The position numbers and the translations under genes are program-made. From an uncultured bacterium (GTDB lineage: Bacteria; Patescibacteriota; Saccharimonadia; UBA4664): 64,000 nucleotides of DNA. The notes under the pieces are model-generated. The model was not told where the DNA came from, ran no database searches, and saw only the letters and a list, made by a program, of their open reading frames with translations. Location: NCBI GenBank assembly GCA_963720265.1, contig CAVRET010000002.1:136704-200703 (forward strand). Reading direction: 5' to 3'. Below are positions 32,305 through 51,172 of this stretch, piece by piece. Numbering within the stretch: the first letter of the stretch is position 1; every line of letters starts with the position of its first letter.

Positions 32305-33006
32305 CTAGCGGTATTCAGGATTTGCAAAGTCAAAATGCGAGCCGGCGTCCCATTTGCTCCGCTGGTTGCCATAGGCCGGCACACCACCGGCCGCTTTGAG
32401 CATTTTCGCCAGATGCATCAGGTTCCATGTCATGAACGTCGTATTGCGATTCGTAAAATCATTCGCAAAGCCCACCTTGCCACCGTGCCCATCGTCGTCA
32501 CCATAACTCGGCCCCGGACCGGCCTCACCAATCCAGCCGGCATCGGCTTGAGGCGGAATCGTATAGCCCAAGTGTTGCAGACTATACAACACATTCATCG
32601 CACAATGCTTAATTCCATCCTCATTTCCGGTAATCAAACACCCACCAACTTTCCCATAGTAGGCATACTGGCCGGCCTCATCGAGCAGGCTCGAACACGC
32701 GTACAGTCGCTCAATCACCTTTTTCATCTGCGAGCTATTGTCACCCAGCCAAATCGGGCCGGCCAGCACCAAAACATCAGCTGCCATCACCTGCTTGTAC
32801 AGCTCCGGCCACTCGTCTCGCTCCCAGCCGTGCTCGCGCATATCCGGGTAAATGCCTGTCGCAATATCCGGATGATCAATCGTCCGGATCACTTCCACGG
32901 TAACACCGTGCTTGCGCATAATCGCCGCACTCACCTCAATCAGCCGCTCGGTATGGCTCTGAGCCGGCGACTTTGTCAGCGTCCCATTAAAATATAGTGC
33001 CTTCAT
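32305..33006 (-). CDS. Flavodoxin-like-fold NAD(P)H-dependent FMN reductase family protein
   Basis: Start set at MKALYFNGTL (33006). An AADVLVLAGPIWLGDNSSQMKKVIERL core is typical of the NADPH-dependent FMN reductase / WrbA-like fold. Confidence 0.5.
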   Translation of the reverse strand: MKALYFNGTLTKSPAQSHTERLIEVSAAIMRKHGVTVEVIRTIDHPDIATGIYPDMREHGWERDEWPELYKQVMAADVLVLAGPIWLGDNSSQMKKVIERLYACSSLLDEAGQYAYYGKVGGCLITGNEDGIKHCAMNVLYSLQHLGYTIPPQADAGWIGEAGPGPSYGDDDGHGGKVGFANDFTNRNTTFMTWNLMHLAKMLKAAGGVPAYGNQRSKWDAGSHFDFANPEYR

Positions 33007-33119
33007 ACCGCTAAAATCATATGTTTCTGCCACCACCACGTTCCTTTTATAGGAGAACCATATCACGAAGAAGGCCCCTAAAGAGGCACCGTGTCACTAA
33101 AGATGCAATAAACGTGCAT

Positions 33120-34361
33120 TCAGAAATTGTTCGAGTCCCGCTCCCCCGGCCGGCTGGGGCGGTGAGACCGGCGCCAAACCGCCGAACCCAGAACCAGCAT
33201 GATCCCAATCACAACAACGGAACCCGCAATAACCGCTCCTTTGTGAGCGCTGTACGCCGCAGTCAGCGAATTGCGGCTTGTGCGCGGCTGGCCCGATCCG
33301 TTCTGTCCATTGCCGGAACTGCTGCCCGCGGGACCATAGCCGCCGGTGCTATCGCTGCCCACACCCGCACCAGTGCCGGCGGCGGAGCTCGCACTAGGCA
33401 TTGGCGTGGCCGCGCTAGATGTAGTCGAGCTTGACGCAGTAGCGGACGCCCCGGCACCGCTCGCCGATCCACTCGTACCAACCGAAGATGAACGTATAGT
33501 CGGAACCGAAGTTGACGCAGACCCACTATGCACGGGGGCTGGCGTTGGGGTATTCGCGCCCGCGTAACTCCACGCGCGCACGTAGTCTACCTGAACGTTC
33601 GCCGGCGCTACCGTAGAGCTGCCGCTTGAGGTTGTGTTTTGTAAAACCAAATACATTGGTGCGCTGGTAATTCCCGACGCAATCGTGCCAACCTTTACGC
33701 CGTCGTAATAATACGTCACGATTCCCGGCTCCCAATCCGCGCCAAATGTGTGCCACCCAGAGTAATTGCCGCTCGCACAGCCGCCCGGGCCGCCGGACGG
33801 ATCATGAAAATGCCAGCACGCCTGGCCCCCCAACCCCTCCAAAACATCCATCTCCCCGTCAGTCGGCCAATTTTGACCGTCGGTCCACCAGGCCGGCCAG
33901 TTGGCCACACTGCCGTTGCCCGGCAAATACATCCGGGCCTCGACGAATCCGTAGGTGAAGCTAAACAAGCCGTCCGAACGGACCAGCGAGCCGGTATACG
34001 GCTCATTGTGCCCGGCGCAGCTCGACGACTGATGGACGAGGTTAAGGTTGAGCACCCCACCACTCTCCGAAACGTTCGACGAGCTGTAGCACGCATCTTC
34101 GCTCGTATTCACCGGCCCGGTTGTACCAGTTCCAAACCAGCCAGGGATCCACTTGGTAGTATCAAGGCTGCTTCCGTTGAATTCATCGTCAAACACCAAG
34201 TTCCAGTTGCCCGCCGGCCCAATCGGCTGTACCGCAGCCAAGCTGTGCAGCACCACCAACCACCCAGTAGCCACGGATACTACAACGAGCGACACAAGGG
34301 CTGCACCGGTAAACTCCCGGCGTTTCCATATTCTCGCGGGCCTCTTGCGGCGTTTAACCAT
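33120..34361 (-). CDS. Glycoside hydrolase family 16 (beta-glucanase/laminarinase-like), membrane-anchored
   Basis: GEMDVLEG matches the GH16 catalytic ExDxxE. N-terminal TM anchor, C-terminal Ser/Thr/Gly/Ala-rich region and a second hydrophobic segment. Confidence 0.6.
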   Translation of the reverse strand: MVKRRKRPARIWKRREFTGAALVSLVVVSVATGWLVVLHSLAAVQPIGPAGNWNLVFDDEFNGSSLDTTKWIPGWFGTGTTGPVNTSEDACYSSSNVSESGGVLNLNLVHQSSSCAGHNEPYTGSLVRSDGLFSFTYGFVEARMYLPGNGSVANWPAWWTDGQNWPTDGEMDVLEGLGGQACWHFHDPSGGPGGCASGNYSGWHTFGADWEPGIVTYYYDGVKVGTIASGITSAPMYLVLQNTTSSGSSTVAPANVQVDYVRAWSYAGANTPTPAPVHSGSASTSVPTIRSSSVGTSGSASGAGASATASSSTTSSAATPMPSASSAAGTGAGVGSDSTGGYGPAGSSSGNGQNGSGQPRTSRNSLTAAYSAHKGAVIAGSVVVIGIMLVLGSAVWRRSHRPSRPGERDSNNF

Positions 34362-34468: not shown

Positions 34469-34936
34469 CTAGCGCCGGTCGTGCCATTCCTTGACAGTCC
34501 GCGGCAACTCCACGCCCACCGAAAACAAAAAGATCACCGTCGTCCCCTTACCCATAAACGCAAACTGCTTGCTAATATCAGCCTTCAGCGCATCTTCGCC
34601 TCCAACCGCCAGCTTGCCCAGATACTGCCCAAAGCTGCCGTGCTCGCGTGCGATCTCCTGCATTTTGGCCGCATTACCCACCACCGCCCGGATCTTGAGC
34701 AAATTACGGATCACTGCCGGGTCCGCCATTAACGCATCAATCTTTTGCTCGTCGTAATCGGTCACGGTAGCAATATCAAACCCATCAAACGCCTGGCGAA
34801 TGCCCGGCCATTTCTTCTCCAATGTCGCCCAATTCAGCCCGGCCGCAAAGACGACCTTGCTCATGCGCTCAAAGTATTCATTGTCATCTTTCGGCTTTTC
34901 AACCGGATGATTATGCCACTCAGAAGGCTTCGGCAT
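34469..34936 (-). CDS. tag: DNA-3-methyladenine glycosylase I
   Basis: FERMSKVVFAAGLNWATLEKKWPGIRQAFDGFD matches the Tag family pattern (F.AGLSW.T.L.K...FR.AF..FD). Confidence 0.7.
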   Translation of the reverse strand: MPKPSEWHNHPVEKPKDDNEYFERMSKVVFAAGLNWATLEKKWPGIRQAFDGFDIATVTDYDEQKIDALMADPAVIRNLLKIRAVVGNAAKMQEIAREHGSFGQYLGKLAVGGEDALKADISKQFAFMGKGTTVIFLFSVGVELPRTVKEWHDRR

Positions 34937-34984
34937 CTCGCACCTCCTTCTTATTTGCAGCCATCATAGCACGGGCGCTCACAA

Positions 34985-35032
34985 GTAAAGCGGCCTTGAT
35001 TACTCAAGGCCGCCGGGCTTGGCGGCTCCACA
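34985..35032. repeat. Direct repeat, copy 1 (about 48 nt, contains perfect hairpin GCGGCCTTGA-TTAC-TCAAGGCCGC); left boundary of the TA/IS island
   Basis: AAAGCGGCCTTGATTACTCAAGGCCGCCGGGCTTGGCGGCTCCACAAG is about 81% identical to copy 2 at 38066-38113. The hairpin is identical in both. Confidence 0.45.
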
Positions 35033-35152
35033 AGGCCCGCCTTGCCCACATCGTCGTCGTGACTACGTAGTAGTAGGCACTTGTACCTCTGCACCCACGT
35101 AGCCGGTTTCGTCACAGCTCGATACCGAGAATCTTATGAGTTGCCCCCAGAG

Positions 35153-35599
35153 TCAGGATGTGTCCCAACGCTTCGCCTCGTCCTCAAGCACCCTAAGCAA
35201 ATCAGCGACCACCACCTCAAGGCCCTCCTGTTGCTCTGCATCGCGCATTGCTTCGTCCAAACCGTCCCAGTACCCCTCAAAGTTGCCTCCGTCTCGGCGG
35301 ACGAGTGCCATTTGTACCATGAGACCAATCTGCGTTCGTGCAGAATCACCGCCGGATCTCTGACTCTCAAGAACCACTTGCTCACCTAGCAGCTGGTAGC
35401 GCGTAAGAAGCTCAGTTACTCCGGCTCCAGAAAGCATGGCATCGACCACCTGACGGCGCAGCTCGGCCAGTTCTTTGGTCTCCGCATAACCAAGCGCCTC
35501 AGGAAGCCTATCGATCTCAGGCTTTGGTTCCATCTCAACACTCCAATCAAGGCGCGATGCCTCTGAAGATCCTAGGTCTGGAGAAGGTTCAGACTCCAT
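35153..35599 (-). CDS. Acidic hypothetical protein (148 aa)
   Basis: Glu/Asp/Leu-rich helical ORF inside the island. No motif recognised. Confidence 0.3.
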   Translation of the reverse strand: MESEPSPDLGSSEASRLDWSVEMEPKPEIDRLPEALGYAETKELAELRRQVVDAMLSGAGVTELLTRYQLLGEQVVLESQRSGGDSARTQIGLMVQMALVRRDGGNFEGYWDGLDEAMRDAEQQEGLEVVVADLLRVLEDEAKRWDTS

Positions 35600-35701
35600 G
35601 GCCTAATAATACGTTATCCGTACAACGGCGCCAGTCGACTCCATCAACGGTTGGCAATCTCTCAAAAAATGCCTCGTAAAGGCTATAAATAGATCCTTGA
35701 C

Positions 35702-35752
35702 GGGAGCTAGCGAACGATTTTCGAATTATTTTGACTTAATGAAAGTCAAATC
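35702..35752 (+). repeat. Island repeat R1 (conserved core GAACGATTTTCGAAyTrTTTTGrCTTA plus a copy-specific hairpin)
   Basis: GGGAGCTAGCGAACGATTTTCGAATTATTTTGACTTAATGAAAGTCAA. The hairpin is TTGACTT/AAGTCAA. It abuts the IS982 left inverted repeat. Confidence 0.45.
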
Positions 35753-36671
35753 GTACCCCCTGAATCTAAAAACCTAGCCAACTAGAAAACGAGCGGGCGC
35801 ATACTGTTTCTTGTAAGAGAAAACAAACATGCAACCACTCGCTCTCGAATCACATCATATCGTGGATTTATTTGTCGTCATAGACGACGCCGTAGCAGAA
35901 CCGACCCGGCCGCAGGGTGGCCGGCCAAAACTTGTTCGTGATTCAGAAATCATTACCCTTTTAATCTGGAATTGTATATCGGATACGCGTCAGCGTACCC
36001 TTAAATCCATCTTTCATTGGGCCTTGTTGTACCACCGTCGTGACGTGCCCAGGCTCGGTACATATGGGGCTTTTGTGGCCCATTGCCACCGTCTTTTGCC
36101 TCAACTTCTCGAGCTTTTGGGGCAGATGCTGGTTCCAGCCGAGATCCAGCTAGTAGATTCAACCAGGCTGCCGGTGTGCCGTAACCACCGGGCCGACAGT
36201 TACAAAGTGGCAGCCGGTCTGGCGGGCTGGGGTAAAAACTGGCAGGGCTTTTGGTTTGGATTTAAGTTGCACGCGGCGGTGGACGTGGAAGGGTGGCTTT
36301 CGGCCGTGACCTTTACTCCAGCTGACGTCTACGACGGTCATGTGACGCCCGGGCTGGTACGGCCCGAAACTAAAATTGTAGTGGGCGACAGCCATTACGG
36401 CGACAAAATCGCCCGGGAAAAGCTTTGGCGCGAGCATGGTGTAGTGGTTGTAGCACCGGTTCATTACCGGCAAGTTTCTCGAATTATGGCTTCGTGGCAA
36501 CAAAAACTTCTTGCTGCACGAGTCAAAGTCGAATGCACATTTGACTACTTAAAAGAACATCTGAACTTAGTTAGTTCATTCCCGCGGAGCAAAAACGGCT
36601 ATCTGCTCCATTACGTCAGGATTTTGCTGGGCTACCAGATGGGACGGGGTTTTTAGATTCAGGGGTACCAA
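35753..36671 (+). mobile_element. IS982-family (IS4/IS5 superfamily) insertion sequence, apparently intact
   Basis: 21-22 bp terminal inverted repeats GTACCCCCTGAATCTAAAAACC (35753-35775) and GGTTTTTAGATTCAGGGGTACC (36650-36671) flank one DDE transposase ORF. Confidence 0.65.
35829..36656 (+). CDS. IS982-family DDE transposase
   Basis: 275 aa with a candidate DDE triad (DSTRLPVC ... VGDSHY ... ECTFDYLKEH) and an N-terminal FVVIDDAV. Confidence 0.7.
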   Translation: MQPLALESHHIVDLFVVIDDAVAEPTRPQGGRPKLVRDSEIITLLIWNCISDTRQRTLKSIFHWALLYHRRDVPRLGTYGAFVAHCHRLLPQLLELLGQMLVPAEIQLVDSTRLPVCRNHRADSYKVAAGLAGWGKNWQGFWFGFKLHAAVDVEGWLSAVTFTPADVYDGHVTPGLVRPETKIVVGDSHYGDKIAREKLWREHGVVVVAPVHYRQVSRIMASWQQKLLAARVKVECTFDYLKEHLNLVSSFPRSKNGYLLHYVRILLGYQMGRGF

Positions 36672-36710
36672 GTTGACATCGATTAGAAATGTGACTACAA
36701 TGTAATCACT

Positions 36711-36941
36711 ATGAAGGCATCGATTGTCACAATTGGTAATTCCAAAGGAATTCGAATACCTAAGCCACTACTGGAAGAGAGCGGACTTAAAGATAAAGTC
36801 GAAATCACCGCAGTTAAAGGCGAGATAAAAATCGTACCCCTCAAGGAACCAGTCGATCTTAGTTCAGCATTACTCGCCGAAGCAGCTTTAGGTGATTGGA
36901 ACAAGCCAGAAGAGAATGACGCGTGGGCGAATTTGCGGTAA
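36711..36941 (+). CDS. mazE: MazE/PemI (AbrB/SpoVT-fold) antitoxin
   Basis: ASIVTIGNSKGIRIPKPLLEESGL is a swapped-hairpin barrel DNA-binding motif. 76 aa. It overlaps the downstream toxin gene by 19 nt. Confidence 0.65.
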   Translation: MKASIVTIGNSKGIRIPKPLLEESGLKDKVEITAVKGEIKIVPLKEPVDLSSALLAEAALGDWNKPEENDAWANLR

Positions 36942-37252
36942 ACGAAGTCGTTTTAGTAATGTTCTCCTTCTCGAATCTCAAGGGACAAAAACTCAGACCC
37001 GCTCTTGTCGTTGCAAAAGCAGAATTTGGCGACTTGATTCTTTGCCAAATAACTTCGAAACCGTACTCAAGCAAAATCGCCATAGAATTGAACGCGAACG
37101 ATTTCGGCGATGGCCAATTGCCAATTACAAGTTATATCAGACCAGACAAACTATTCACTGCAGACCGAACCATTATTGCCAGCAAGGCAGGAACGGTTTC
37201 GGACGACAAATCAGCGAGGGTCACAGAAGCAATCCTCAATCTCTTTGCCTAG
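36923..37252 (+). CDS. mazF: MazF/PemK-family endoribonuclease toxin
   Basis: VVLVMFSFSNLKGQKLRPALVVAK ... ITSK matches the PemK/MazF signature. 109 aa. Confidence 0.7.
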   Translation: MGEFAVNEVVLVMFSFSNLKGQKLRPALVVAKAEFGDLILCQITSKPYSSKIAIELNANDFGDGQLPITSYIRPDKLFTADRTIIASKAGTVSDDKSARVTEAILNLFA

Positions 37253-37295
37253 AACGATTTTCGAACTATTTTGGCTTAAAGTAGACCAAACTGAC
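37243..37295 (+). repeat. Island repeat R2 (overlaps the mazF stop)
   Basis: TTGCCTAGAACGATTTTCGAACTATTTTGGCTTAAAGTAGACCAAA. The hairpin is TTTGG/CCAAA. Confidence 0.45.
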
Positions 37296-37304
37296 GCCAG
37301 TCGC

Positions 37305-37694
37305 TTATTTCGTAGAATCTAAAGTCGTCACTAAGCCAGATGCCAGACTAAGCAAAGGCTGATCTGACGTCATAACCTGCCATTTCTTTAGTTTAGCCAA
37401 GCCTACCAAAGCACAATCAAACGGATCAGAGTGATCAATCTCTACGCTCATCATGCTTGTAAGTTCATCCGCAAAGGGCCTATAGGCCTCTACCCCAAAA
37501 CGATCCAAAAATTCGCTTACCGGAGCATTAATCTCTAATTTTCGAATACGACGCTTAAGTTCAATTTCGAAAAGGGTCAACAAGCTGACAACTAATTCTT
37601 CATCTGCCGAGGCTAGGGTTTGCCTTGATTTTGGACCAAGGCGAGAATCCCCTACCATCCACCAAATCAACACATTGGCGTCAATTAGAATCAA
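37305..37694 (-). CDS. vapC: VapC PIN-domain toxin
   Basis: MILIDANVLIWW ... DPFD. 129 aa. Confidence 0.75.
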   Translation of the reverse strand: MILIDANVLIWWMVGDSRLGPKSRQTLASADEELVVSLLTLFEIELKRRIRKLEINAPVSEFLDRFGVEAYRPFADELTSMMSVEIDHSDPFDCALVGLAKLKKWQVMTSDQPLLSLASGLVTTLDSTK

Positions 37695-37700
37695 TTAAAC

Positions 37701-37949
37701 CTAGCTCTCACCTAACAACGCTTTGGCGACTAACTCATCCGTAGCTTTGCTAAATGCATCATTAGCAACTGATACTTTATCGCTCCAAGCTCCAAAAGCA
37801 TGAGCGCGATCAATTCTCTTCTCGGGCACTTTTGTTATCTTGTACTGCGCCTTCCCACGTGCACCAAAAACGACCTGCTCACCCTGATCGACTTTATTGA
37901 GCAGTTTAGACATATGTGTCTTCGTCTCGTGGATTGACAGAACTTTCAT
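37701..37949 (-). CDS. Phd/YefM-family antitoxin (VapB-like) partner of VapC
   Basis: MKVLSIHETKTHMSKLLNKVDQGEQVVFGARGKAQYKI matches the Phd/YefM N-terminal pattern. It ends 6 nt before the vapC start. Confidence 0.6.
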   Translation of the reverse strand: MKVLSIHETKTHMSKLLNKVDQGEQVVFGARGKAQYKITKVPEKRIDRAHAFGAWSDKVSVANDAFSKATDELVAKALLGES

Positions 37950-38029
37950 ATTTCTTAGTCTAATAGGCTAAGAATCCGCAGTCAATCGTTGTCACGCCCG
38001 CGCATCTCATAAAACACTCAGGGCTTCAC

Positions 38030-38082
38030 AGAAGTGAACAATTTTCGAACTGTTTTGGCTTAATTAAAGCAAAAGCGGCCTT
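38030..38082 (+). repeat. Island repeat R3
   Basis: CAGAAGTGAACAATTTTCGAACTGTTTTGGCTTAATTAAAGCAAAAGC. The hairpin is TTTTGGCTT/AAGCAAAA. It shares the upstream CACAGAAG with R2. Confidence 0.45.
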
Positions 38083-38113
38083 GATAACTCAAGGCCGCTG
38101 GGGCTATCAGCTC
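38066..38113. repeat. Direct repeat, copy 2 (hairpin GCGGCCTTGA-TAAC-TCAAGGCCGC); right boundary of the TA/IS island
   Basis: AAAGCGGCCTTGATAACTCAAGGCCGCTGGGGCTATCAGCTCCACCAG. See copy 1. Confidence 0.45.
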
Positions 38114-38169
38114 CACCAGACTGACTCACCCAATCTTCCAGTACAGCCCGAGCACTGACTGCTCACGCC

Positions 38170-38448
38170 TCTAATTGAGATCGGCGCGCAGCGTGTAATG
38201 AAAGACTACTCGATGCGTTCCCTCTCCGGCAGGCTCGATCGTGGGTGGATCGAAGTGCATGTGCTTCAAGATCTTAGCGTCCCCATCTATGAAGCCTTGG
38301 CCACCAGTCCCACTCGCGTCGGGCTATCGGCGGGCTCGTAGAGGGGCTTGAGATCTCCCATGCCAGCAAACTCGTCCACGATAAAGATAAAAGTGATCGA
38401 CGTGGGAGTCTCCTCGATGGAGGCGCTCAAAATGTTCATTGCCACTCC
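38170..38448 (-). pseudogene. Frameshifted remnant of an unknown gene
   Basis: Two adjacent minus-strand frames each contain a short stop-free stretch: MNILSASIEETPTSITFIFIVDEFAGMGDLKPLYEPADSPT... and ...GGQGFIDGDAKILKHMHFDPPTIEPAGEGTHRVVFHYTLRADLN. They overlap out of frame, and no ORF of 60 aa or more is present. Confidence 0.3.
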
Positions 38449-38517
38449 TGGTCCACTGAAAGACGCATCACCTGATACGCCCTTAAAATTATAACATAAA
38501 TTTTAGTATAAGTCCAA

Positions 38518-38575
38518 TGGCGGGAACTAGCGAACGATTTTCGAACTGTTTTGGCTTGAGAAAAGCCATATTCGC
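38518..38575 (+). repeat. Island repeat R4
   Basis: GGGAACTAGCGAACGATTTTCGAACTGTTTTGGCTTGAGAAAAGCCA. The hairpin is TGGCTT/AAGCCA. Its 5' part is nearly identical to R1. Confidence 0.45.
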
Positions 38576-38682: not shown

Positions 38683-39378
38683 GTGCGAAGGCCTGGCCTA
38701 GCAGTGGCAACCGCACTTCTTGCAGCCTCGCTGCTCGCCGTCGGCTGTAGTAGTCCCAGCAGTTCAACAGCAGACGCTCACAGCACCAGCAATACGAACT
38801 CAACGAGCACTGGCATAACGGTCAACAACGGGCCGACAGTCTCAACCATGAAGCCGGGTAAGCGGTTTACGGCCGTACCCGACTTCAGCGACTTTCAGGG
38901 TTGCGGGCGGCCATGCTGGCTGCCACTTTACGCTCAGCCGTGGGAGACGCCGCCGGCCGTAACCCACGGCTGGCCCTGTGAGTACTATGACCCGACGAGC
39001 TCAGACAACGGGCCGTACTGCCTGCACCCGCCAGCAAACCGGTCCAGGAACCAGATGGGCGACTCATCAGACCCCAACTCTGGCGACCGCGTGCTAGTGC
39101 TCTGCCAGACTACGACCCTGCCCAACGGGAGGCCAGCGCAAACGATTCGCAACGAAGCCGGCCAAGAGTCCGATGTCTGGGACAAGATAGCAGTGCCTAC
39201 GACTTTTATCGCGCCACTGAATCCGCCTATGGCGCTCATGCAAGTACCGGGCACCGAAGGTTACTTCTACGAAGCCTACGCGCCGGATATCTGGCTATTG
39301 AACAGCAGCATGAACACAAGCACCGGTCGGGCAAGTCTGCGGGTGCATAACATCCCCTGCAGCCAAGATGGTAGCTGA
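38683..39378 (+). CDS. Lipoprotein (hypothetical, Pro/Trp-rich)
   Basis: GTG start after AGGAGG. The signal peptide has a lipobox (LLAASLLAVGC-SS). Upstream TATAAA is a -10-like element. Confidence 0.5.
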   Translation: MRRPGLAVATALLAASLLAVGCSSPSSSTADAHSTSNTNSTSTGITVNNGPTVSTMKPGKRFTAVPDFSDFQGCGRPCWLPLYAQPWETPPAVTHGWPCEYYDPTSSDNGPYCLHPPANRSRNQMGDSSDPNSGDRVLVLCQTTTLPNGRPAQTIRNEAGQESDVWDKIAVPTTFIAPLNPPMALMQVPGTEGYFYEAYAPDIWLLNSSMNTSTGRASLRVHNIPCSQDGS

Positions 39379-39478: not shown

Positions 39479-39614
39479 TGTTCTACTTCGAGTAAACATT
39501 CATAAACCATACCGGGTGCCAAGGTTACCTTACAGCTTAACAACAGCTTTTTTATATGTCTCGTTCGGTCGGCGATTTACGAAAAATAGCTTTACCAAGC
39601 TATAAATAAGTACT

Positions 39615-39691
39615 TGGCGGGCTCGACCGGATTCGAACCGGCGATCTCCTCCGTGACAGGGAGGCGTGTTAGGCCTCTACACTACGAGCCC
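39615..39691 (-). tRNA. tRNA-Asp (anticodon GTC)
   Basis: Reverse complement GGGCTCG-TA-GTGTAGAGG...CCTCC-CTGTCAC-GGAGG...CCGG-TTCGAAT-CCGG-TCGAGCCC-G-CCA. Confidence 0.85.
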
Positions 39692-42072: not shown

Positions 42073-42148
42073 GCCCCGGTAGCTCAGCGGATAGAGCGTC
42101 TCCGTCCTAAGGAGAGCGTCGGGGGTTCGATTCCCTCCCGGGGCACCA
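42073..42148 (+). tRNA. tRNA-Arg (anticodon CCT)
   Basis: GCCCCGG-TA-GCTC-AGCGGATA-GAGC-G-TCTCC-GTCCTAA-GGAGA-GCGTC-GGGGG-TTCGATT-CCCTC-CCGGGGC-A-CCA. Confidence 0.85.
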
Positions 42149-43739
42149 ATGAAGCTTCTTCAGAACTACCGTCTAATAAAATAGGCTTAAGAGAAGCATT
42201 CCCATTGCCCGCACCGGCCGCCACCAGTTGGCGGCTTTTGGTTCGCATCACCGTAATCGTCTTAAACGGCTCCATGAGTACTGCTTCAGTAACGCCGCTT
42301 GGCACGTCCACCAGTACCCGCTCAAACAGGGCCTGGTTCATGCGCCGCCTTAGCATATCCGGAGCTAGCCGGTAGAAGCGGTCACAATCCTTCAACAGAT
42401 CGAGGGCCACTTGCAGTAAGCCTTCAACATCGGAAAACTGCTTCCGGGCACCTGCTAGTAGCCCTTCCGCTTGCTCTGACTCATGGTTAATACGCGACTG
42501 CTCTTCGGCTAACACATCTAGCTCAAGAGCGCCTGCATAATACGCCTGGAGCAATTTGGAGCGCTCCAGTTTGAGTTTACGCAACTTCTCGGCCTGGATA
42601 CGTTCGTCACGCTCATTTACTTCCTGGCGGCTTGTGAGCTGAACACGGATCTGTTCCTTTATCGCGCTAGCCTCGTCTTCGCTCAGCTTTAGCGTCCGGT
42701 AGTGCTCAACCAAGCTTTGTTCCGCATCTTCGGCCGCCACATATGGCAAGTCACACTCATGGCGATGCGGTCTAGCTGCGCAGAAGTAGTACAGGTACGT
42801 TTCCTTCTTTGCACTCGCTATACACATTCGTGACCCACACCGACCGCAATACAGAGTGCTTTTCAGATAGTGATTATGTCTGCGCTGCTTCTCGCCAGCC
42901 GACCGCGATTGCAATACCTGCTGCACTCGATTGAACAGCTCTTTCGGTACCAGCGGTTCATGCCGACCTTCGTACTCAACACCGCGATAGGTAATGACTC
43001 CGCAATAGTAGGCATTGTGCAGCAACTTTGCCAACACCTGGTGCCGTAGCACACGTCCATCAGTGCGCTTGCTACTGCGAGGTAATAGTCCTCGCGCGGT
43101 CATAATCTCGGCTAACTGTATTAATGAGTACTCGCCAGTGGCATACATCTCAAAGGCCAACTTCACCAATGGCGCCCTATGAGGGTCCACCACTACTGTG
43201 CGCACATCATGACCATCCACGGTAGCACTGGTATTAATATAGCCAACTGGCGCCAAAGTGAGTGTGCCACCGCTCTTGGCCTTTTGTGTCATGCCCTTTA
43301 TCACTTCGGTGGCCAAGTTCCCGGAGTAGAATTCGGCTATGGTCGCCATTATCCCATGGAGCAATCTTCCTGAGGGAGTGGCATCGATGTTCTCGGTCGC
43401 CGAAACTAACTGCGCCCCTGCTGCTCGAATGGCTAGGTTGATCGAAAAATCGTCATCCCGGTTCCGGGCCAGTCGATCCACCTTGTGAACCAGAACGTAG
43501 TCGATATCCTTATCTGCTTTGAGTTTGGCCAACATATCTTTGAGCCGTGGCCGGTCTGCAGATCGCGCCGATTCGCCACGGTCAATGTATTCGGCCACCA
43601 CCTCTGCACCAAGGCTATCAGCCTTGCGTCGGCAAGCCTCGCGTTGGGCCGGAATTGAATAGCCTTCCGGATCTTGATCTTTTTGAGCTTGTTCGAGCGT
43701 CGAAACGCGTAAGTAAATAACAGCTTTCTTCATAGGCAT
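42084..43739 (-). CDS. Large serine recombinase (resolvase catalytic domain + recombinase domain + zinc ribbon); the C-terminal ORF tail overlaps tRNA-Arg antisense
   Basis: The N-terminus AVIYLRVSTLEQAQKD...SIPAQREA...DRLARN is a serine-recombinase catalytic domain. A recombinase middle domain and LYCGRCGSRMC zinc ribbon follow. The last ~20 codons (REGIEPPTLSLGRRRSIR) are an antisense translation of the tRNA. Confidence 0.8.
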   Translation of the reverse strand: MPMKKAVIYLRVSTLEQAQKDQDPEGYSIPAQREACRRKADSLGAEVVAEYIDRGESARSADRPRLKDMLAKLKADKDIDYVLVHKVDRLARNRDDDFSINLAIRAAGAQLVSATENIDATPSGRLLHGIMATIAEFYSGNLATEVIKGMTQKAKSGGTLTLAPVGYINTSATVDGHDVRTVVVDPHRAPLVKLAFEMYATGEYSLIQLAEIMTARGLLPRSSKRTDGRVLRHQVLAKLLHNAYYCGVITYRGVEYEGRHEPLVPKELFNRVQQVLQSRSAGEKQRRHNHYLKSTLYCGRCGSRMCIASAKKETYLYYFCAARPHRHECDLPYVAAEDAEQSLVEHYRTLKLSEDEASAIKEQIRVQLTSRQEVNERDERIQAEKLRKLKLERSKLLQAYYAGALELDVLAEEQSRINHESEQAEGLLAGARKQFSDVEGLLQVALDLLKDCDRFYRLAPDMLRRRMNQALFERVLVDVPSGVTEAVLMEPFKTITVMRTKSRQLVAAGAGNGNASLKPILLDGSSEEASLVPREGIEPPTLSLGRRRSIR

Positions 43740-43826
43740 GTCCTCCCGATTAATGGATCAGGAGAGGATACCAGATCTGAAGCCGATGGAAAGAGGCGTT
43801 CTACAGATATAGCCTATAATGGAACC

Positions 43827-44078
43827 ATGAATTCTATCGATATTAGAATCTGGCCATCAGTGAGCCGTTACCCCAAGGGAGGTTGGGAACACGCCTATAC
43901 ACTGCCAGATGGCGGCAAAGGAGGTGGCGGTCATAGGAACGTAACTTTAGATCAGGCCAAATCACTTATCTCGACTACGCTCGCAGAAATGGGCTACGCG
44001 GACTATCAGCTCAACTTTATCGTTGGCGACATGGTATTTACGCCTCTAGGCGAGCACGATGATTCAGACTCTGCTTAA
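43827..44078 (+). CDS. Hypothetical protein (83 aa)
   Basis: TATAAT-like -10 at 43819-43824 and an ATG at 43827. No motif recognised. Confidence 0.3.
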   Translation: MNSIDIRIWPSVSRYPKGGWEHAYTLPDGGKGGGGHRNVTLDQAKSLISTTLAEMGYADYQLNFIVGDMVFTPLGEHDDSDSA

Positions 44079-44849
44079 CACCTCCATTACATGCTCAATC
44101 AGCTCAACCTGGAAGATACGCCGATGGTGAATTGGCAGGCGCTGGACGAGCTGGTCGATTACTGCCTTGCGGCTGTCATCTGGAACAAGAAATAGTACCT
44201 TCGGAAATACCCCGGTCTGATGCTGTTCGCGGCCTCTAGCCCAATACTTTGTGTAAGCATCAAGCTTTTGCCTCAGTTGTGGCCTGCGCTCGGTGCCCAA
44301 GTCCATCTCGATAAACCAGTAATAGGCATATTGACCAATATGCGTCTTCACATTAGCGTCCGGCCGCAGGAGCTGGCGCCCATAGACACCAACGTCCCGC
44401 CGAGGCTCAACTTGAAACGATTTAACGGTTAGCTTGTCTTCGCGCTCCAGCTCCTTTAGCCCCACGTATAACTCGGTAACGGCCAAAGCGTGACCGATAT
44501 ACTGCTCACCTGGGAGTTTCGGCGTCCTCACGGGTGATGTCCCACGACTCAGCAAGGCAATTGCCGGACGTGCCAGGGTAAGCACCATGCTAGCTGACCC
44601 GGCTCGTACACCCCCAACTTGTCGTGGTAAGCGAGTGATTATCCGTTGATCTGCCAATCGTTTAAGGATTCGAGCTGCCACACGTGTGTTACCAAGAGGG
44701 GTACCATCATATACATGAACTCGTTGTATCTGTCGGCTTGTAGCAAATCGTACTCGTAGTAGCGTCTTCAAAACTGCCAAATCACGTTCACTGAGCTCAT
44801 ATGCGTGCCTGTCTACGTAGGCGGTTATAGTACAGGATGTCATATACAT
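44064..44849 (-). CDS. Replication-relaxation family protein (plasmid/ICE-type)
   Basis: 261 aa. The N-terminal winged-helix LSERDLAVLKTLLRVRFATSRQIQRV and overall pattern resemble the Replic_Relax family of actinomycete integrative elements. The assignment is from pattern memory and is tentative. Confidence 0.45.
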   Translation of the reverse strand: MYMTSCTITAYVDRHAYELSERDLAVLKTLLRVRFATSRQIQRVHVYDGTPLGNTRVAARILKRLADQRIITRLPRQVGGVRAGSASMVLTLARPAIALLSRGTSPVRTPKLPGEQYIGHALAVTELYVGLKELEREDKLTVKSFQVEPRRDVGVYGRQLLRPDANVKTHIGQYAYYWFIEMDLGTERRPQLRQKLDAYTKYWARGREQHQTGVFPKVLFLVPDDSRKAVIDQLVQRLPIHHRRIFQVELIEHVMEVLSRV

Positions 44850-45341
44850 TCCTGTATATAAGTCACACGCGTACCTTTGCGTCCGGCACGTCCCCCAAGC
44901 GATTCAGCTTGTCTTGTGGACCACACGATTTGAATAGCGGTGCGAGCACTAATTCTTACTGCATTTATCTTCATATTCTGGGTCCTCCGCTTACTGAACT
45001 GGAGAGGATACCAGATGTGGGCACAAAAAATACAAAATCGCCGCCGGTAAACACTAAATAATGGCTGTACGTACAGGCATTAGGTTCATCCGAGAACAAT
45101 TAATTAGATAATGGTACATTTTGAAGAAATCACCGGTGAGGCTATAATGACATTACGCAATGAAAGTGCTTATGGTACATCATAAGCAGAGTAAGTTACG
45201 ACAGAAGGGAAATAGAACGAACATTATGTCTAGTTCTGACTAGTATTACCCGAAGGTAAAGGGGCTGCGAACGCAGCCCCTTTAAATTGCTCACGGAATT
45301 TTATTGCTTTAGGCTATGGTATAGGAAAAGAGAGACAACGG

Positions 45342-46244
45342 ATGATGATGCCAGACTGGGAAGACGTGCTCAAGTTCTTTCGAGATGTTTTCACTACCGC
45401 GATAGTCGAAAAAATTCTTGGTGTGGCAATTGGTGCGCTTATTGGAGCAGCCCTAGGTGGAGCAACAGAACGTGGAATTGCCCCAGAAATCGGCGGCGCC
45501 ATAGGTGCGATAGTAGGCTTCGTAACCGCCATGCTTGTCGTTCGTTCAAGAATAAAGAACGCAAAAAAGCCACCACAGATCACACTCTATCAACATATTA
45601 TTCACAGCTATGATAGTGAGCACAAACTCCGACGTGTGCGTGAGAAAAGACGCGTTAAAAACATGACCTCCGACAACATGGAATCGGTACGCGTAGGAAT
45701 TGGACCAGTCGGCCCAGATCTTCCTATTTACGTATCTACCGACACGCAGAAAATAGATGCAGCAAGGCAAGCTAAGCGCCCATATGGCGTGATCATGGCG
45801 ATTGATAGCGGCACTATTAACTATCGCGAGCAAGACCGGGATCCCATGACGCACGATATCCTGTTCGATTTTAACTTCGACTACCCATTACCAGGTCACA
45901 AGCGCCAAGAGGAGCATTTCATTTTCGAAACAACTTACTACGGAGAGTCGCATTACTACAAGCGAAATTATGTAAGCATACGACCACGAACAACTAGAAA
46001 AAAGGCGAGATTTACACTTGAGTTCACGGCTGATTCTCGCCCTCGTGGAGGGGTAGTCTACCCAACCAAATGGCCGTCAGGCCATGACGCGGAGGCCAAT
46101 GGAGATCGTATTGCTCACAAAAAGAAGATGGTGGATAGTGATAACCGATTGCACTATCGTTGGCCAGGCTGGCTTCTTGGAAGCCCAAATAAGAAGATAA
46201 CGTACGGTTTGTCTTGGGATCCTCCAACATCTCGGTCAACCTAA
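45342..46244 (+). CDS. Hypothetical membrane-anchored protein (glycine-zipper TM region, 300 aa)
   Basis: GVAIGALIGAALGGATERGIAPEIGGAIGAIVGFVTAML is followed by a basic soluble domain. No motif recognised. Confidence 0.35.
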   Translation: MMMPDWEDVLKFFRDVFTTAIVEKILGVAIGALIGAALGGATERGIAPEIGGAIGAIVGFVTAMLVVRSRIKNAKKPPQITLYQHIIHSYDSEHKLRRVREKRRVKNMTSDNMESVRVGIGPVGPDLPIYVSTDTQKIDAARQAKRPYGVIMAIDSGTINYREQDRDPMTHDILFDFNFDYPLPGHKRQEEHFIFETTYYGESHYYKRNYVSIRPRTTRKKARFTLEFTADSRPRGGVVYPTKWPSGHDAEANGDRIAHKKKMVDSDNRLHYRWPGWLLGSPNKKITYGLSWDPPTSRST

Positions 46245-46251
46245 GATTGCA

Positions 46252-47745
46252 CTAGAAAACTTTGTAAGAGGCGGCGGCACGTTTGTTCTGGAGCCGAATG
46301 CTCACTTGATAGCCGTGTTTGTTAAACAGATACATCAATTGCTCGCCATTAATGAGTGTTAACGGCTTGTCTTTGGCAAAGTCTCGGGCTTCGGGACCGT
46401 AGTAGCTGGTCGTCACCAAGATTCCCTTAACCGCACCCTCATTGAGCACCGTACCGTATAAATCGCGCACTGCGCTAACTGGAACGAGGTTATTGTAGCG
46501 CTTAGCCTGAATAACGAACTTGCCACCACGTATTGGGTCTGGGTCGTAGGCAATAGCGTCGACGCCTTCGTCGCGCGACGCTTGCGTTACTTCGACTTTA
46601 GCCCCGTCATTTCCAAACTCGCGCTGGAACAAATCGCGCACTAAGATCTCAAACTGTTGCCAGTCCATACTGGCTAGGTTCTGCGAGTCATCCACCGAGT
46701 CAAGCACCGCACTGGCCTCAATAATCCGCTTATCACTGGTGTTCATCTGAAGGATAGGCTTAACCGGAGCCAAGTTCACCAGGTTGCCAGCCGATACTCC
46801 TTTGAGGTGCCGGAAACAGTCTCTCGGACTAATGTGATCAAGTTGGAGCTCTTCAAACTCACGCCTATTAACCTGCAAGCTCAGTACACAATTTCGGAAT
46901 GCCTTTCCGGTCTGCGGGTCGAATCCTGAAACGTAGCCATTGAAACCGACCGTCACGACCGCGTTGGCGTAATCGGCACTAAACACTTCATGTAATGTCC
47001 GTAAGGCTATTTGATATAAGGTCGAATTATAGAACTCCTCGAATTCGCGCTGCTTCATCTCTTTCGCAACAGAGGCATCCTTGCTCGGGGAGTAAGCGTA
47101 CTCAGTCACCCGTGGTACCCGATCGGTATTGGGTAGCTCCACCTCCACAAGCATGAGCTTACTTTGCGGCTCGTACTGCACTTGAGGAGCCAGACTTAGT
47201 GAAGACGGGTATTTTGACAGCACCAAGACGCGCTGGATGTACTTCAGGACTGCCGCAGGCGTCTTGCTCTCATAAGCGGCTTTCATCCTGTCGACTTTCT
47301 TGTTGTGCTCAACTTGCTCAGCGAGGTAAAGCTCCTTGTCTTTCTCGTAGGCCCTCTGAGCTTGGTCAAAGGCTTTCTTTGCTTCTTCTTCTGCAATCTG
47401 GTGCTTTGCTTTCATGCCAGGCACCAATCCCGAGAGCTTGGAAAAATGTGGCGCAAATTCGTCCCATTGAGGCGGCTTCTTGAACGATTCCTTATCGTAC
47501 AATTCATCCCAATTGAGCTTATTCTCGTGCAATAGCGCTGTGGCCAACAACTGCTGAAAGGCCGAGATGTCAGCTTGAGCATGCGTCGACATATTCTGGG
47601 ATTTTGCTCGACTTAGATCCTTTTCCCAACGCTTCTGCAACACCAAAAGCTTATTGGCAACCACCGCCTGGGTACTCCCAGTTACGGTTACCGTTTCACC
47701 AGTTACTGGATGAGTGACTGTTTTGTAGTAAGACATACGACTCAT
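46252..47745 (-). CDS. Fusion protein: about 330 aa domain of unknown function (coiled-coil-rich) + C-terminal Mrr-cat (PD-(D/E)xK) restriction-endonuclease-like domain
   Basis: C-terminus WQQFEILVRDLFQREFG...KVEVTQASRDEGVDAIAYDP...KFVIQAKRYNNLVPVSAVRDLYGTVLNEGAVKGILVTTSYYGPEAR follows the Mrr N-terminal catalytic-domain pattern (D...E.K in ..D..A....V.QAKRY). Confidence 0.55.
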   Translation of the reverse strand: MSRMSYYKTVTHPVTGETVTVTGSTQAVVANKLLVLQKRWEKDLSRAKSQNMSTHAQADISAFQQLLATALLHENKLNWDELYDKESFKKPPQWDEFAPHFSKLSGLVPGMKAKHQIAEEEAKKAFDQAQRAYEKDKELYLAEQVEHNKKVDRMKAAYESKTPAAVLKYIQRVLVLSKYPSSLSLAPQVQYEPQSKLMLVEVELPNTDRVPRVTEYAYSPSKDASVAKEMKQREFEEFYNSTLYQIALRTLHEVFSADYANAVVTVGFNGYVSGFDPQTGKAFRNCVLSLQVNRREFEELQLDHISPRDCFRHLKGVSAGNLVNLAPVKPILQMNTSDKRIIEASAVLDSVDDSQNLASMDWQQFEILVRDLFQREFGNDGAKVEVTQASRDEGVDAIAYDPDPIRGGKFVIQAKRYNNLVPVSAVRDLYGTVLNEGAVKGILVTTSYYGPEARDFAKDKPLTLINGEQLMYLFNKHGYQVSIRLQNKRAAASYKVF

Positions 47746-47801
47746 ATGATTACCTCACGGCTCATCATAGCAAAAATCATGCAAACGACCATAAGACCGA
47801 T

Positions 47802-48665
47802 CTACTTCACGAGCTTAATCTGTCTCGCATAATGATCAATCCAAGCAGGCATCTTGGGCTCGGCCTCGTGAAAGATGTAGTGTTTGACCTGCCTGGTTAT
47901 CTCCCACTGGTAGGCAAATACTGCCCGGCACGACCGGACCATGCCTTCAACGTCAGTTGAGCCGTCTATTGATACGTCAATCCGTTCTGGCGATTCCTTA
48001 ATTACTGAAGCCAATTCGATGGGATCAGCATGGCTGCCGCCAGAGAAGAACGGGTATAACCGATCGTATAGCCGCACCATCGTCATAGTTTTCTTGCCGA
48101 TCCGATGATACTTCTGATTATAAAAATCAATAATCTCGCAACGTTGCTTCAGGCTGAAGCCTTTAGTGCGTGTGACCGGTGTCGTCTTGGCGGGGTTTAT
48201 CACTTCCGGGATTGCATCCGGCCACTTTGGGTAATCGAGAGCCACGGTACTCTCGATGTCTAGTAGCCGATTCTTGTGTTTAGCAAAATCCTCATCGGAC
48301 ACGTGTCCGTCACTATGGAGGACGGCCAACATCTCGATTCGCTTCCGCTCGCTGGTCATAATCATATATTTGGCATAGACCAATGACCTACAGCAGTAGA
48401 TTAATCGGACATTGATCCAGATCTCGAACAACGTTCGCGCTAAGGTGTAGCTAACACGAAATTGCTTGCTGTCGGCTAAACTGGTTATCCCTTGGACTTG
48501 GGCAATCGCCGAGATAAATAGTGTTAGTAAATAGCCATCTCGACCTAGCGAGTAGACATCGATCTTGGCCTGTTCCATCTCTTTGAGGAGTACAAACCCG
48601 TAGCCATGAAGTTCCTTGAGGGCGTGGATAGCTTCAACAAGTTCACGCTCAGCATCGGTTTGCAC
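47802..48665 (-). CDS. Hypothetical protein (287 aa), middle gene of the accessory operon
   Basis: No recognisable motif. 15 nt gap to the upstream gene and 56 nt gap to the downstream gene, all on the same strand. Confidence 0.3.
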   Translation of the reverse strand: MQTDAERELVEAIHALKELHGYGFVLLKEMEQAKIDVYSLGRDGYLLTLFISAIAQVQGITSLADSKQFRVSYTLARTLFEIWINVRLIYCCRSLVYAKYMIMTSERKRIEMLAVLHSDGHVSDEDFAKHKNRLLDIESTVALDYPKWPDAIPEVINPAKTTPVTRTKGFSLKQRCEIIDFYNQKYHRIGKKTMTMVRLYDRLYPFFSGGSHADPIELASVIKESPERIDVSIDGSTDVEGMVRSCRAVFAYQWEITRQVKHYIFHEAEPKMPAWIDHYARQIKLVK

Positions 48666-48680
48666 GGCTCTGTCCCATCG

Positions 48681-50240: not shown

Positions 50241-50300
50241 GCTTCCAGACTAGCACAATGAATCCTATCTGGTAACAGATAGCGATTAATTCAAGAGGCT

Positions 50301-50573
50301 TTAGCCCATAAAGCCAGCATCACGCAACCGCTTCGCCACAGTTTCGCGGTCAATACCAAACTGAAGCGCCAGAGTGTACGGAGCAATGCCGGACCGATAT
50401 GCCGCGATCAACTTATCCATATCCAGGTTCAGCAGCGCTGGGGAGCGTAGTGGCTTGCGCTTCGTGCCCTGTGTGACACAGCTCGCCGCCGTCAGTGCTG
50501 AAAGATCGTGGTGTAAGTGCTGGAGGCTCTCAAGCCTTAAATCCTCCTGAAGCTGACAGATCAGGCGCACCAA
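50301..50573 (-). CDS. Small resolvase-type HTH (HTH_7-like) DNA-binding protein, 90 aa
   Basis: MDKLIAAYRSGIAPYTLALQFGIDRETVAKRLRDAG resembles the C-terminal HTH of Hin/resolvase proteins. No catalytic domain. Confidence 0.45.
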   Translation of the reverse strand: MVRLICQLQEDLRLESLQHLHHDLSALTAASCVTQGTKRKPLRSPALLNLDMDKLIAAYRSGIAPYTLALQFGIDRETVAKRLRDAGFMG

Positions 50574-50578
50574 AAATT

Positions 50579-51172
50579 ATGAAGACCAGATTTTTACTCC
50601 ACGGCGGCAGGGTCAAACTTTCCGACGAGCGCAACGACCGGTTCTTTCGCGAGCTGGTGAAAGATCTTGCCGACGGTGACCAGGTGTTGTCGATCGGCTT
50701 TGCCCAACGCGACGAGACCGTCCGGCAGAAATACTTCGAACGGGACAAGGGCTTTCTTTTAGCGCAAACCAAAGCCGACATTAATGTTATCAATGCCACG
50801 TACGACGACTTTATTGAGCAAATTGGAGCCTCCAAGTCCGTCTACATCACCGGAGGAGACTGCCCAGAACTCGTAAAAAACATCCAGCGCTACCAAGATT
50901 TCGATTCTCTCCTGCGCGGCAAGGTAATTGGCGGAACTTCGGCCGGGGCATGTTTATTCGCAGCCTATTACCTAAATCTTCCCGAGCCCGAGGTCATGTC
51001 GGGCTTAAGCGTATTCCCAATCCGACTCATGGTCCATTATGGCAACTCTGAATTCAACTCAACAGACAAGACATTACAGGTTTTGCAGCATGCCCACCCT
51101 GAGCTAGAACTGCTTCGCCTTCGTGAGTGCGAAAGACACCCCCACGGAGCAAGCTCCGTGGTTGTCACTTAG
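50579..51172 (+). CDS. Peptidase S51 (PepE/cyanophycinase-like, class I glutamine-amidotransferase-like fold)
   Basis: Start reassigned to MKTRFLLHGG. VYITGGDCPELV and VIGGTSAGACLF (the Ser nucleophile motif GxSAG) are present. The 3' end runs into the IS200 terminal hairpin. Confidence 0.5.
   Translation: MKTRFLLHGGRVKLSDERNDRFFRELVKDLADGDQVLSIGFAQRDETVRQKYFERDKGFLLAQTKADINVINATYDDFIEQIGASKSVYITGGDCPELVKNIQRYQDFDSLLRGKVIGGTSAGACLFAAYYLNLPEPEVMSGLSVFPIRLMVHYGNSEFNSTDKTLQVLQHAHPELELLRLRECERHPHGASSVVVT

Follow-up and report, generated by a model that had tools for sequence, protein, structure and literature searches.

How toxin-antitoxin modules and orphan genes came to be stacked at one point of a small bacterial chromosome is the question raised by a locus of an uncultured bacterium of the Patescibacteriota (Saccharimonadia; UBA4664; assembly GCA_963720265.1). 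The locus was analysed in a stretch of 64,000 nucleotides, called the window below (contig CAVRET010000002.1, positions 136,704 to 200,703; source contig 1,108,292 bp), and all positions are counted from the first letter of the window. The variable segment extends over 4.7 kb from the 3' end of the tRNA-Asp gene (39615) to tag (34936), the gene for 3-methyladenine DNA glycosylase I, and includes a predicted lipoprotein gene. A sequence-only reading had seen here a 3.1-kb toxin-antitoxin island bracketed by two copies of a 48-nt hairpin repeat, which we call H. It missed a second repeat, R, which is present in four copies, one of them (38532) outside the proposed island, and which is more informative than H. 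The repeats, their layout, the homology of R to the end and flank of the tRNA gene and a comparative series of relatives lead us to favour, with a probability of about 0.6, serial site-specific accretion of integrase-less mini-elements at tRNA-Asp as the origin of a five-unit, 4.7-kb array.

R was found at four positions on the same strand of the window (35712, 37252, 38036 and 38532), where practically none is expected by chance, and a profile search of the window added no further copy. The core is 28 nt long (GAACGATTTTCGAAYTRTTTTGRCTT), and the copies are pairwise identical at 24–26 of the 28 positions. R1 and R4 occur in a longer version of 54 nt (81% identical), and R2 and R3 consist of the core only. 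Behind the core, four of the five known copies have a short AT-rich hairpin (5–8 bp), a weak one with z values of −0.9 to −2.2. Every unit has an R at its right end, and the fourth copy lies beyond the second H. Read from the tRNA, the order is lipoprotein gene, R4, gene D with H2, R3, a vapBC-like pair, R2, mazEF with an IS982-like insertion sequence (IS), R1, an acidic orphan gene (A) with H1, and tag (Table 1). The R copies are spaced by 1540, 784 and 496 nt with genes in between, and a CRISPR array, in which repeats of 28–37 nt alternate with uniform spacers of about 30–40 nt, was rejected as a reading. At a GC content of 0.44, the mazEF and vapBC units are below the window as a whole (0.53). 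Independent Logan contigs of the same organism match the window at 100%.

R is a putative attachment-site (att)-type partial duplicate of the 3' region of tRNA-Asp, from the T-loop to the CCA end, together with the downstream flank. On the minus strand R4 reads ...AAGCCAAAACAGTTCGAAAATCGTTCGCTAGTTCCCGCCA followed by TTGGACTTATACTAAAATTTATGTTA, and the real tRNA-Asp end of a related contig, L012, reads ...GGTTCGAATCCGGTCGAGCCCGCCA followed by TTGCAATTATATAATATTTATGTTA. R4 with its flank aligned to the L012 tRNA-Asp 3' end with its flank at a score of 45, which none of 2000 shuffles reached, and the alignment spans GTTCG through CCCGCCA and 25 nt further. In a tiling control, no tile of the window outside the tRNA-Asp locus scored above 33, and the next best tiles were other tRNA genes. 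The flank directly after R4 (alpha), taken alone, aligned to the L012 tRNA-Asp flank from offset 0 with a score of 30 (p=0.0005), and to the flank in another relative, L011, with p=0.04. R1 with its flank aligned in register to the window's own tRNA-Asp end and flank, including the small hairpin and T-run (score 27; p=0.0025–0.0055). The similarity between R and the tRNA starts at the T-loop heptamer GTTCGAA, and only GTTCGAA and CCCGCCA are identical to the tRNA. The alpha flank contains TTATGTTAAA and was also considered as a dif/Xer site; this candidate was dropped, as the GC skew gave no terminus and the flank is explained as a promoter.

The locus was then compared with its counterparts in relatives. 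The nearest of these by Tag are Candidatus Saccharibacteria metagenome-assembled genomes with 67% identity or less, and because the best Tag homologue is 67% identical, an orthologous comparison among close relatives was ruled out. In L011, a 283-kb contig with a 65% identical Tag, the order is tRNA-Arg, then PpiC, FMN_red, tRNA-Asp, 1.5 kb of unrelated small open reading frames (ORFs) and tag, and further on SH3, tRNA-Thr and tRNA-Gly. The window has the same backbone order on the other strand, so that the whole stretch from tRNA-Asp to tag is the variable part. An R-like relic lies 96 nt from tag in L011, at the distal end of its variable region, and agrees with R1 at 18 of 19 positions on the predicted strand (p=0.002). 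The DNA between mazF and tRNA-Asp forms a graded series. In L013 (MazF 75% identical) mazF is 41 nt from tRNA-Asp, with no unit and no R; in L012 (mazEF 85.7% identical in DNA) one unit and one R lie between them; and in the window there are three units and three R, with the fourth R beyond mazEF. The order in L012 is mazF, R at the stop codon, a 29-nt spacer, an H-like hairpin, two unrelated minus-strand genes (p128 and p76) and tRNA-Asp. The vapBC unit is absent from L012, where R and H adjoin, and at this point the window differs by exactly one unit and one R; H2 is the positional counterpart of the H of L012. All variable DNA lies directly 3' of tRNA-Asp, and the position of this anchor is the same in L011, L012 and L013. 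In the 170-kb Saccharibacteria contig P0125 (JGI 3300047160; MazF 74%), for which gene coordinates only were used, mazEF and FMN_red are separated by about 100 nt, room enough for a tRNA-Asp gene. In the same contig (genes 5385-6324) a gene with the competence-regulator domain TfoX_N is located directly upstream of mazEF. The DNA upstream of tag is variable and transposase-rich in L006, L015 and L016, and unknown ORFs are found there too in two relatives.

These comparisons changed the earlier picture of the flanks. Both flanking genes had been taken for ordinary chromosome, which is correct for tag, a conserved backbone gene; the lipoprotein gene lies between R4 and the tRNA and has no counterpart in any relative examined. 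The proposed comparison of the interval between tag and the lipoprotein gene did bring out a locus that varies among relatives, although the variable part runs from tRNA-Asp to tag. The general idea of a site-specific hotspot accreting selfish modules is supported, with R, not H, as the att-like repeat. The literature on islands, integrons or attC sites in Saccharibacteria and Patescibacteria yielded nothing specific.

The two direct 48-nt copies of H that were reported at 34985 and 38066 (about 81% identical) are real; they start at 34987 and 38072 and are identical at 40 of 48 positions (83%). The 10-bp arms of the stem, GCGGCCTTGA and TCAAGGCCGC, are identical in both copies, the loops are TTAC and TAAC, and the homology stops at about 48 nt. 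The hairpin pattern occurs at 2 sites in the window against 0.01 expected by chance, and a profile search of the window found no H beyond these. Both copies fit the pattern of an intrinsic terminator on the minus strand (an 11-bp GC-rich stem, a 4-nt loop and a T-rich tail), and before each of them, at a distance of 50–120 nt, a minus-strand gene has its stop codon. After H2 come R3 and the vapBC promoter, in this order. By inspection, the T-tract of H1 overlaps the -35 region of the tag promoter and abuts its extended -10 (TGCTATGAT), which fits together with a strong ribosome-binding site (RBS; AAGGAGG) into the 50 nt from H1 to the start codon (34937-34990, minus strand). The third H, beside R in L012, is diverged: its stem is changed, its tail is conserved with a good T-run, and the shape is kept in the consensus fold of the three copies. 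H1 and H2, with identical stems, are closer to each other than H2 is to its L012 counterpart. H resembles intrinsic terminators but is unusual in that three unrelated genes share a conserved tail, about 20 nt long, on the 5' side of the hairpin. This conservation suggests that H is part of a common element backbone. The units of A (H1-ORF-R1) and D (H2-ORF-R4) have nothing in common but their two ends (H 83%, long R 81%); between these, neither the DNA nor the proteins are related, and no mutual homology was found among the cargoes A, D and L012 p128 and p76. Metagenome matches to the H hairpin (L003-L005) were rejected as unrelated hairpins with the stem alone in common.

From these features, H is a predicted shared 3' untranslated region with an intrinsic terminator, and not an att site or island boundary. 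The claim that the H copies delimit the island has to be given up, since H2 lies inside variable DNA that continues to tRNA-Asp at 39615. The genes said to be enclosed, an acidic ORF, mazEF, a PIN toxin with its antitoxin and an IS982-like element, are present, although the NCBIfam IS982 and the Phd/YefM scores are below threshold; the reported frameshifted remnant (38171-38439) is beyond H2 on the right and not within the bracketed interval.

We infer the recombination mechanism, the order of events and the terminator activity of H as follows. The R copies would be att-type junctions from successive site-specific insertions at or beside tRNA-Asp, so that with every insertion a new element would come to carry a junction repeat at its distal end and the older units would move toward tag. 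Because no unit encodes a recombinase, the units may be decayed or cis-mobilizable mini-elements that need an enzyme provided in trans. Single units would be added or deleted by recombination between one R copy and the next, as may have happened with vapBC relative to L012. H would terminate the minus-strand cargo beside R or beside the tag promoter and so insulate the next unit from read-through.

Several observations weigh against this proposal. In the tiling control, the best chance tiles of the window had scores in a range that includes the 27 of R1. Alone, the tRNA-like part of R has no significant similarity to tRNA-Asp (p about 0.07–0.1), the Rfam tRNA model gave no match on R at E≤10, and an exact duplicate of the tRNA-Asp 3' end is not present in the window; the reading that R is simply a decayed tRNA end was rejected on the first two grounds, only the test of end plus flank having succeeded. 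The case for the tRNA thus comes from the combined end and flank of R1 and R4, R2 and R3 having the core only. The R copies also share derived differences from the real tRNA and are therefore not independent decay products of tRNA ends, and R1 and R4 share them yet carry two different types of real flank. An extra assumption is needed here: that the R copies converted one another, or that the elements carry a half-site mimicking the tRNA, with the crossover at or after CCA. A Pfam scan of 49 larger ORFs of the window revealed no recombinase in the array or beside it (34.9–39.7 kb); the only recombinases in the window are one of Xer type, at a distance of 19 kb, and a large serine enzyme linked to tRNA-Arg. 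The copy counts of R and H cover the 64-kb window of a 1.1-Mb genome, elsewhere in which dispersed copies are possible, and clear R and H were seen in one relative alone, the 1.6-kb contig L012.

The shared derived differences could also mean that R is the dedicated site of an active platform for small circular cassettes, comparable to attC or attI, at any copy of which cassettes are exchanged, and that the tRNA is not the target; R would then be a conserved half-site that mimics the tRNA and is recognised by an enzyme whose gene lies elsewhere. The R cores are as close to the R of L012 as to one another (24–26/28), vapBC differs from L012 by one unit and one R at an internal R, and the units are of 0.5–1 kb, promoter-bearing and in either orientation. 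The sole tyrosine recombinase found in the window, the Xer-type enzyme (57869-58789, plus strand), passes the NCBIfam cut-off for XerA/'integron integrase' and is just below those for XerC and XerD. A weak R-like motif, GGACGATCTTCGAACAATT, was seen at L017 5520-5537 and L018 1413-1430 (nhmmer E 0.04–0.07), about 185 nt downstream of a distant mazEF (62%) and in an unrelated context without a tRNA; it may be a chance match or an R-like site travelling with this mazEF family. Integrons, and the clusters of attC sites lacking integron-integrases (CALINs) that have no integrase nearby, are arrays of small cassettes with or without promoters, many of them toxin-antitoxin modules, each followed by attC. 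The array has in common with them small units in either orientation with a repeat after each and no integrase nearby. It differs in that R lacks the attC boxes and the long hairpin and derives from a tRNA 3' end, and that there is no IntI. Specifically, the core GAACGATTTTCGAACTRTTTTGGCTT has neither the complementary R'' (RYYYAAC) and R' (GTTRRRY) boxes nor the long imperfect attC hairpin, its own hairpin being weak, and the integron attC reading of R was rejected. Further points against a platform are the lack of a linked recombinase and the absence of any match to R in 185,579 GTDB species genomes and in viral contigs, two genomes only carrying it. In addition, the 26/28 identity of R is not significantly above the 85.7% background of mazEF (binomial estimate, p about 0.2–0.25). 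We regard an active platform as unlikely. Its more specific form, a previously undescribed Saccharibacteria system of gene-sized circular cassettes (toxin-antitoxin modules and orphan genes), each with a conserved 28-nt tRNA-mimic half-site and sometimes H, and with a recombinase encoded elsewhere acting at any R, is somewhat less likely again; if true, it would be integron-like in function and evolutionarily derived from a tRNA att site.

No more probable than the platform is an origin without any site-specific recombinase, through local duplication of the tRNA-Asp 3' region and recombination, homologous or homology-facilitated illegitimate, of incoming DNA, for example after natural transformation, in which R and H would be short homology anchors homogenised by gene conversion. 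This would explain why the R copies are closer to each other than to the tRNA, and H1 and H2 closer than H2 to its L012 counterpart; it fits the absence of an integrase, and a TfoX_N gene stands beside mazEF at this locus in one relative. However, R4 and R1 join two different types of real tRNA flank exactly at the CCA end, and such exact joins are the signature of recombination at a defined point, not of random duplication. All four R copies are also in one orientation, each at a unit boundary. Anchors of 28–50 nt with 83–90% identity are, moreover, poor substrates for RecA-type recombination.

That H, R or both are generic dispersed repeats, like repetitive extragenic palindromes (REPs), bacterial interspersed mosaic elements (BIMEs) or miniature inverted-repeat transposable elements (MITEs), clustered here by chance, is very improbable. 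Both repeats contain hairpins and the IS982-like element is inserted right beside the R1 hairpin, but pattern and profile searches found no further copy in the other 60 kb of the window, the copies are all in one orientation at unit boundaries, and R is homologous to a tRNA end with its flank. The REP-like alternative raised by the sequence-only reading therefore found no support: neither repeat matched viral contigs, and R was also absent from the GTDB representative genomes. Hardly credible is that one 3.1-kb island was inserted between tag and the lipoprotein gene, with the H copies, two direct repeats of 83% identity around low-GC toxin-antitoxin modules, as its attL and attR or as a long target duplication. 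Variable DNA runs 1.5 kb past H2 to tRNA-Asp, the two H copies have the orientation and place of terminators for two unrelated genes, a third H lies beside R next to mazF in L012, in a contig that has no vapBC and ends in tRNA-Asp, and the interval holds several R-bounded units instead of one element.

Serial accretion at tRNA-Asp has close parallels among known systems. In Dehalococcoides, tandem islands at ssrA are bounded by repeats of the 3' end of the RNA gene, with insertion in the T-loop (McMurdie et al. 2011, PMC3146451). A conserved element-derived motif that does not align to the RNA gene lies beside each repeat, about half of the ssrA islands are without integration genes, the region is hypervariable between strains, and the integrase DsiB is a CcrB-like serine recombinase whose 3' end overlaps ssrA (PMC3146451). 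The array agrees with these islands in its tandem, hypervariable units directly downstream of a structured-RNA gene and bounded by what appear to be repeats of its 3' end, in a conserved element-derived motif next to the repeat with no alignment to the RNA gene, and in the switch of the similarity between R and the tRNA at GTTCGAA, which places the junction in the T-loop. A CcrB-like recombinase overlaps tRNA-Arg in the window as DsiB overlaps ssrA. The differences are that the units are of 0.5–1 kb with one gene or toxin-antitoxin pair instead of islands of several kb, that none has an integration module, that the target is tRNA-Asp in a 1.1-Mb Saccharibacteria genome, and that the repeat is a degenerate mimic, compared with an exact 20-bp copy there. 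Streptococcal cis-mobilizable elements (CIMEs) are integrase-less remnants that keep att sites, stack at one target gene and gain or lose members by att recombination (PMC5704250). The array is likewise an integrase-less tandem stack with putative att-type repeats at the 3' end of one gene; unlike CIMEs it has no functional integrative and conjugative or integrative mobilizable (ICE/IME) partner and no conjugation or mobilisation genes.

Table 1. Coordinates of the features of the array and of its two borders in the window.
Feature	Position	Strand	Remarks
tag (3-methyladenine DNA glycosylase I)	34469..34936	-	With this gene the conserved backbone resumes beyond the hotspot
H1	34987..35034	-	Terminator-like 3' module of gene A; T-tract abuts tag promoter and RBS
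Unit E0, cargo A	35153..35599	-	Acidic orphan ORF, 148 aa (126 aa in NCBI annotation)
Beta-prime flank	35664..35683	-	After R1; small hairpin and TTTTTT, homologous to hairpin downstream of real tRNA-Asp
R1, long form	35698..35753	+	Core 35712-35739; minus-strand reading ...GTTCGAAAATCGTTCGCTAGCTCCCGTCA
IS982-like insertion	35755..36672	+	Between R1 and mazEF promoter; transposase 35829-36656, 275-aa DDE
Unit E1, mazEF	36673..37252	+	Promoter TTGACA-17-TACAAT 36673-36701; mazE 36711-36941; mazF 36923-37252
R2, core	37252..37279	+	Starts at G of mazF TAG stop (37250-37252); orthologous to the single R of L012 (26/28)
Unit E2, vapBC-like	37305..37985	-	Promoter-like site 37985-37957; antitoxin 37701-37949; PIN toxin 37305-37694
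R3, core only	38036..38063	+	
H2	38072..38119	-	3' end of D; conserved tail CTGGTGGAGCTGATAGCCCC, 11-bp GC-rich hairpin, TTTTGCTTT; 9 nt from R3
Unit E3, cargo D	38171..38439	-	Two reading frames that abut and together would give about 89 aa; frame changes near 38290-38305
Alpha flank	38488..38516	-	Directly after R4; promoter-like TGGACT-17-TATAAT with TG
R4, long form	38518..38571	+	Core 38532-38559; minus strand: short hairpin, then GTTCGAAAATCGTTCGCTAGTTCCCGCCA (degenerate tRNA-Asp 3' end)
Unit E4, cargo lipoprotein gene (predicted)	38683..39378	+	Signal peptide ending LAVGC
Beta flank	39582..39603	-	Small hairpin and T-run just downstream of tRNA-Asp; homologous flank follows R1
tRNA-Asp(GUC)	39615..39691	-	Hotspot anchor; ARAGORN; Rfam 65.6 bits

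The cargo of the units was examined by family searches and protein look-ups. MazE (PF04014, 31.3 bits) and MazF (PF02452, 44.2 bits) are both above the cut-off and their genes overlap by 19 nt, which identifies a MazEF type II toxin-antitoxin pair; its promoter is homologous to that of L013. In the vapBC-like unit the PIN toxin scores 37.4 bits, above the cut-off, and the 82-aa antitoxin has a weak N-terminal Phd/YefM match (17 bits against a Pfam threshold of 29.8). Gene A was its own only match among 5.8 billion clustered proteins. D is a putative frameshifted gene or pseudogene, as judged from its two abutting frames; its sequence is identical in an independent Logan contig, which supports the frameshift, and no homologue of it was detected. 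A, D, the lipoprotein and p128 and p76 of L012 could be assigned to no family in Pfam, NCBIfam or PADLOC. Exact-protein look-ups returned matches from the same sample only, the transposase not being on record, and plasmid and phage collections gave no match to the island DNA. The beta hairpin is likely the terminator of tRNA-Asp.

The IS982-like element has perfect 18-nt terminal inverted repeats (CCCCTGAATCTAAAAACC) at 35757 and 36665, begins 1–3 nt beyond the R1 hairpin and has no recognised target-site duplication. Its transposase matches Pfam DDE_Tnp_1_3 at 83.6 bits and NCBIfam IS982 at 120.1 against a cut-off of 130. Two Logan contigs end 33 nt and 38 nt inside the element, and because both break there it is probably multi-copy in the genome. 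We infer that it is a later, secondary insertion. A 38-nt inverted repeat reaching from the IS into R1 was rejected, as its right arm is the mazEF promoter conserved in L013.

A 551-aa large serine recombinase (42084-43739, minus strand; best NCBIfam matches CcrB/CcrC) is encoded 2.4 kb to the right of the array, and its 3' end overlaps tRNA-Arg(CCU) (42073-42148, plus strand) by 65 nt. It heads a second mobile element (42073-51700), in which Replic_Relax (44064-44849), an Mrr-type restriction endonuclease (46252-47745), DUF5677 (47802-48665) and an IS200-like Y1 transposase (51169-51612) follow. About 9.5 kb appears to be inserted at tRNA-Arg, because L011 has only Ppx-GppA between NDK and tRNA-Arg; a distal tRNA-Arg repeat was looked for and not found. 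In the unrelated contig L014 (3897-6330) the gene of a 579-aa serine recombinase and tRNA-Gln, on opposite strands, overlap, and mazEF (MazF 62%) comes directly after the recombinase; this is the same recombinase-over-tRNA layout with a toxin-antitoxin module at the edge of the element. The CcrB-like enzymes at tRNA-Arg in the window and at tRNA-Gln in L014 indicate that such enzymes circulate in this group. On the other side of tag, between tag and an SH3-domain gene (32305-34361), the window encodes a 253-aa FMN reductase (32305-33066) and a GH16 glycosidase-like protein (33120-34361) whose long tail is rich in Ser, Thr and Ala; at this place in L011 there is just one ORF, of 150 aa, so that this side of tag is variable too.

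Saccharibacteria (TM7) have streamlined genomes of about 1 Mb and an epibiotic lifestyle, and their gain and loss of accessory genes is poorly documented. The array is a miniature, integrase-less form of the known tandem islands at tRNA and tmRNA genes, in a streamlined Saccharibacteria genome, and the locus shows one concrete route for such gain and loss. It is a single tRNA-linked hotspot, whose position is conserved across genomes sharing only about 65% Tag identity, and it stacks gene-sized units, two toxin-antitoxin pairs and lineage-specific orphan genes, with recognisable junction repeats between them. R and H provide sequence handles for finding the hotspot in other genomes of the candidate phyla radiation (CPR) and for following unit gain and loss in reads, and possibly a landing site for genetic tools. 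If the units were actively exchanged cassettes, they would represent a new small-scale gene-capture system.

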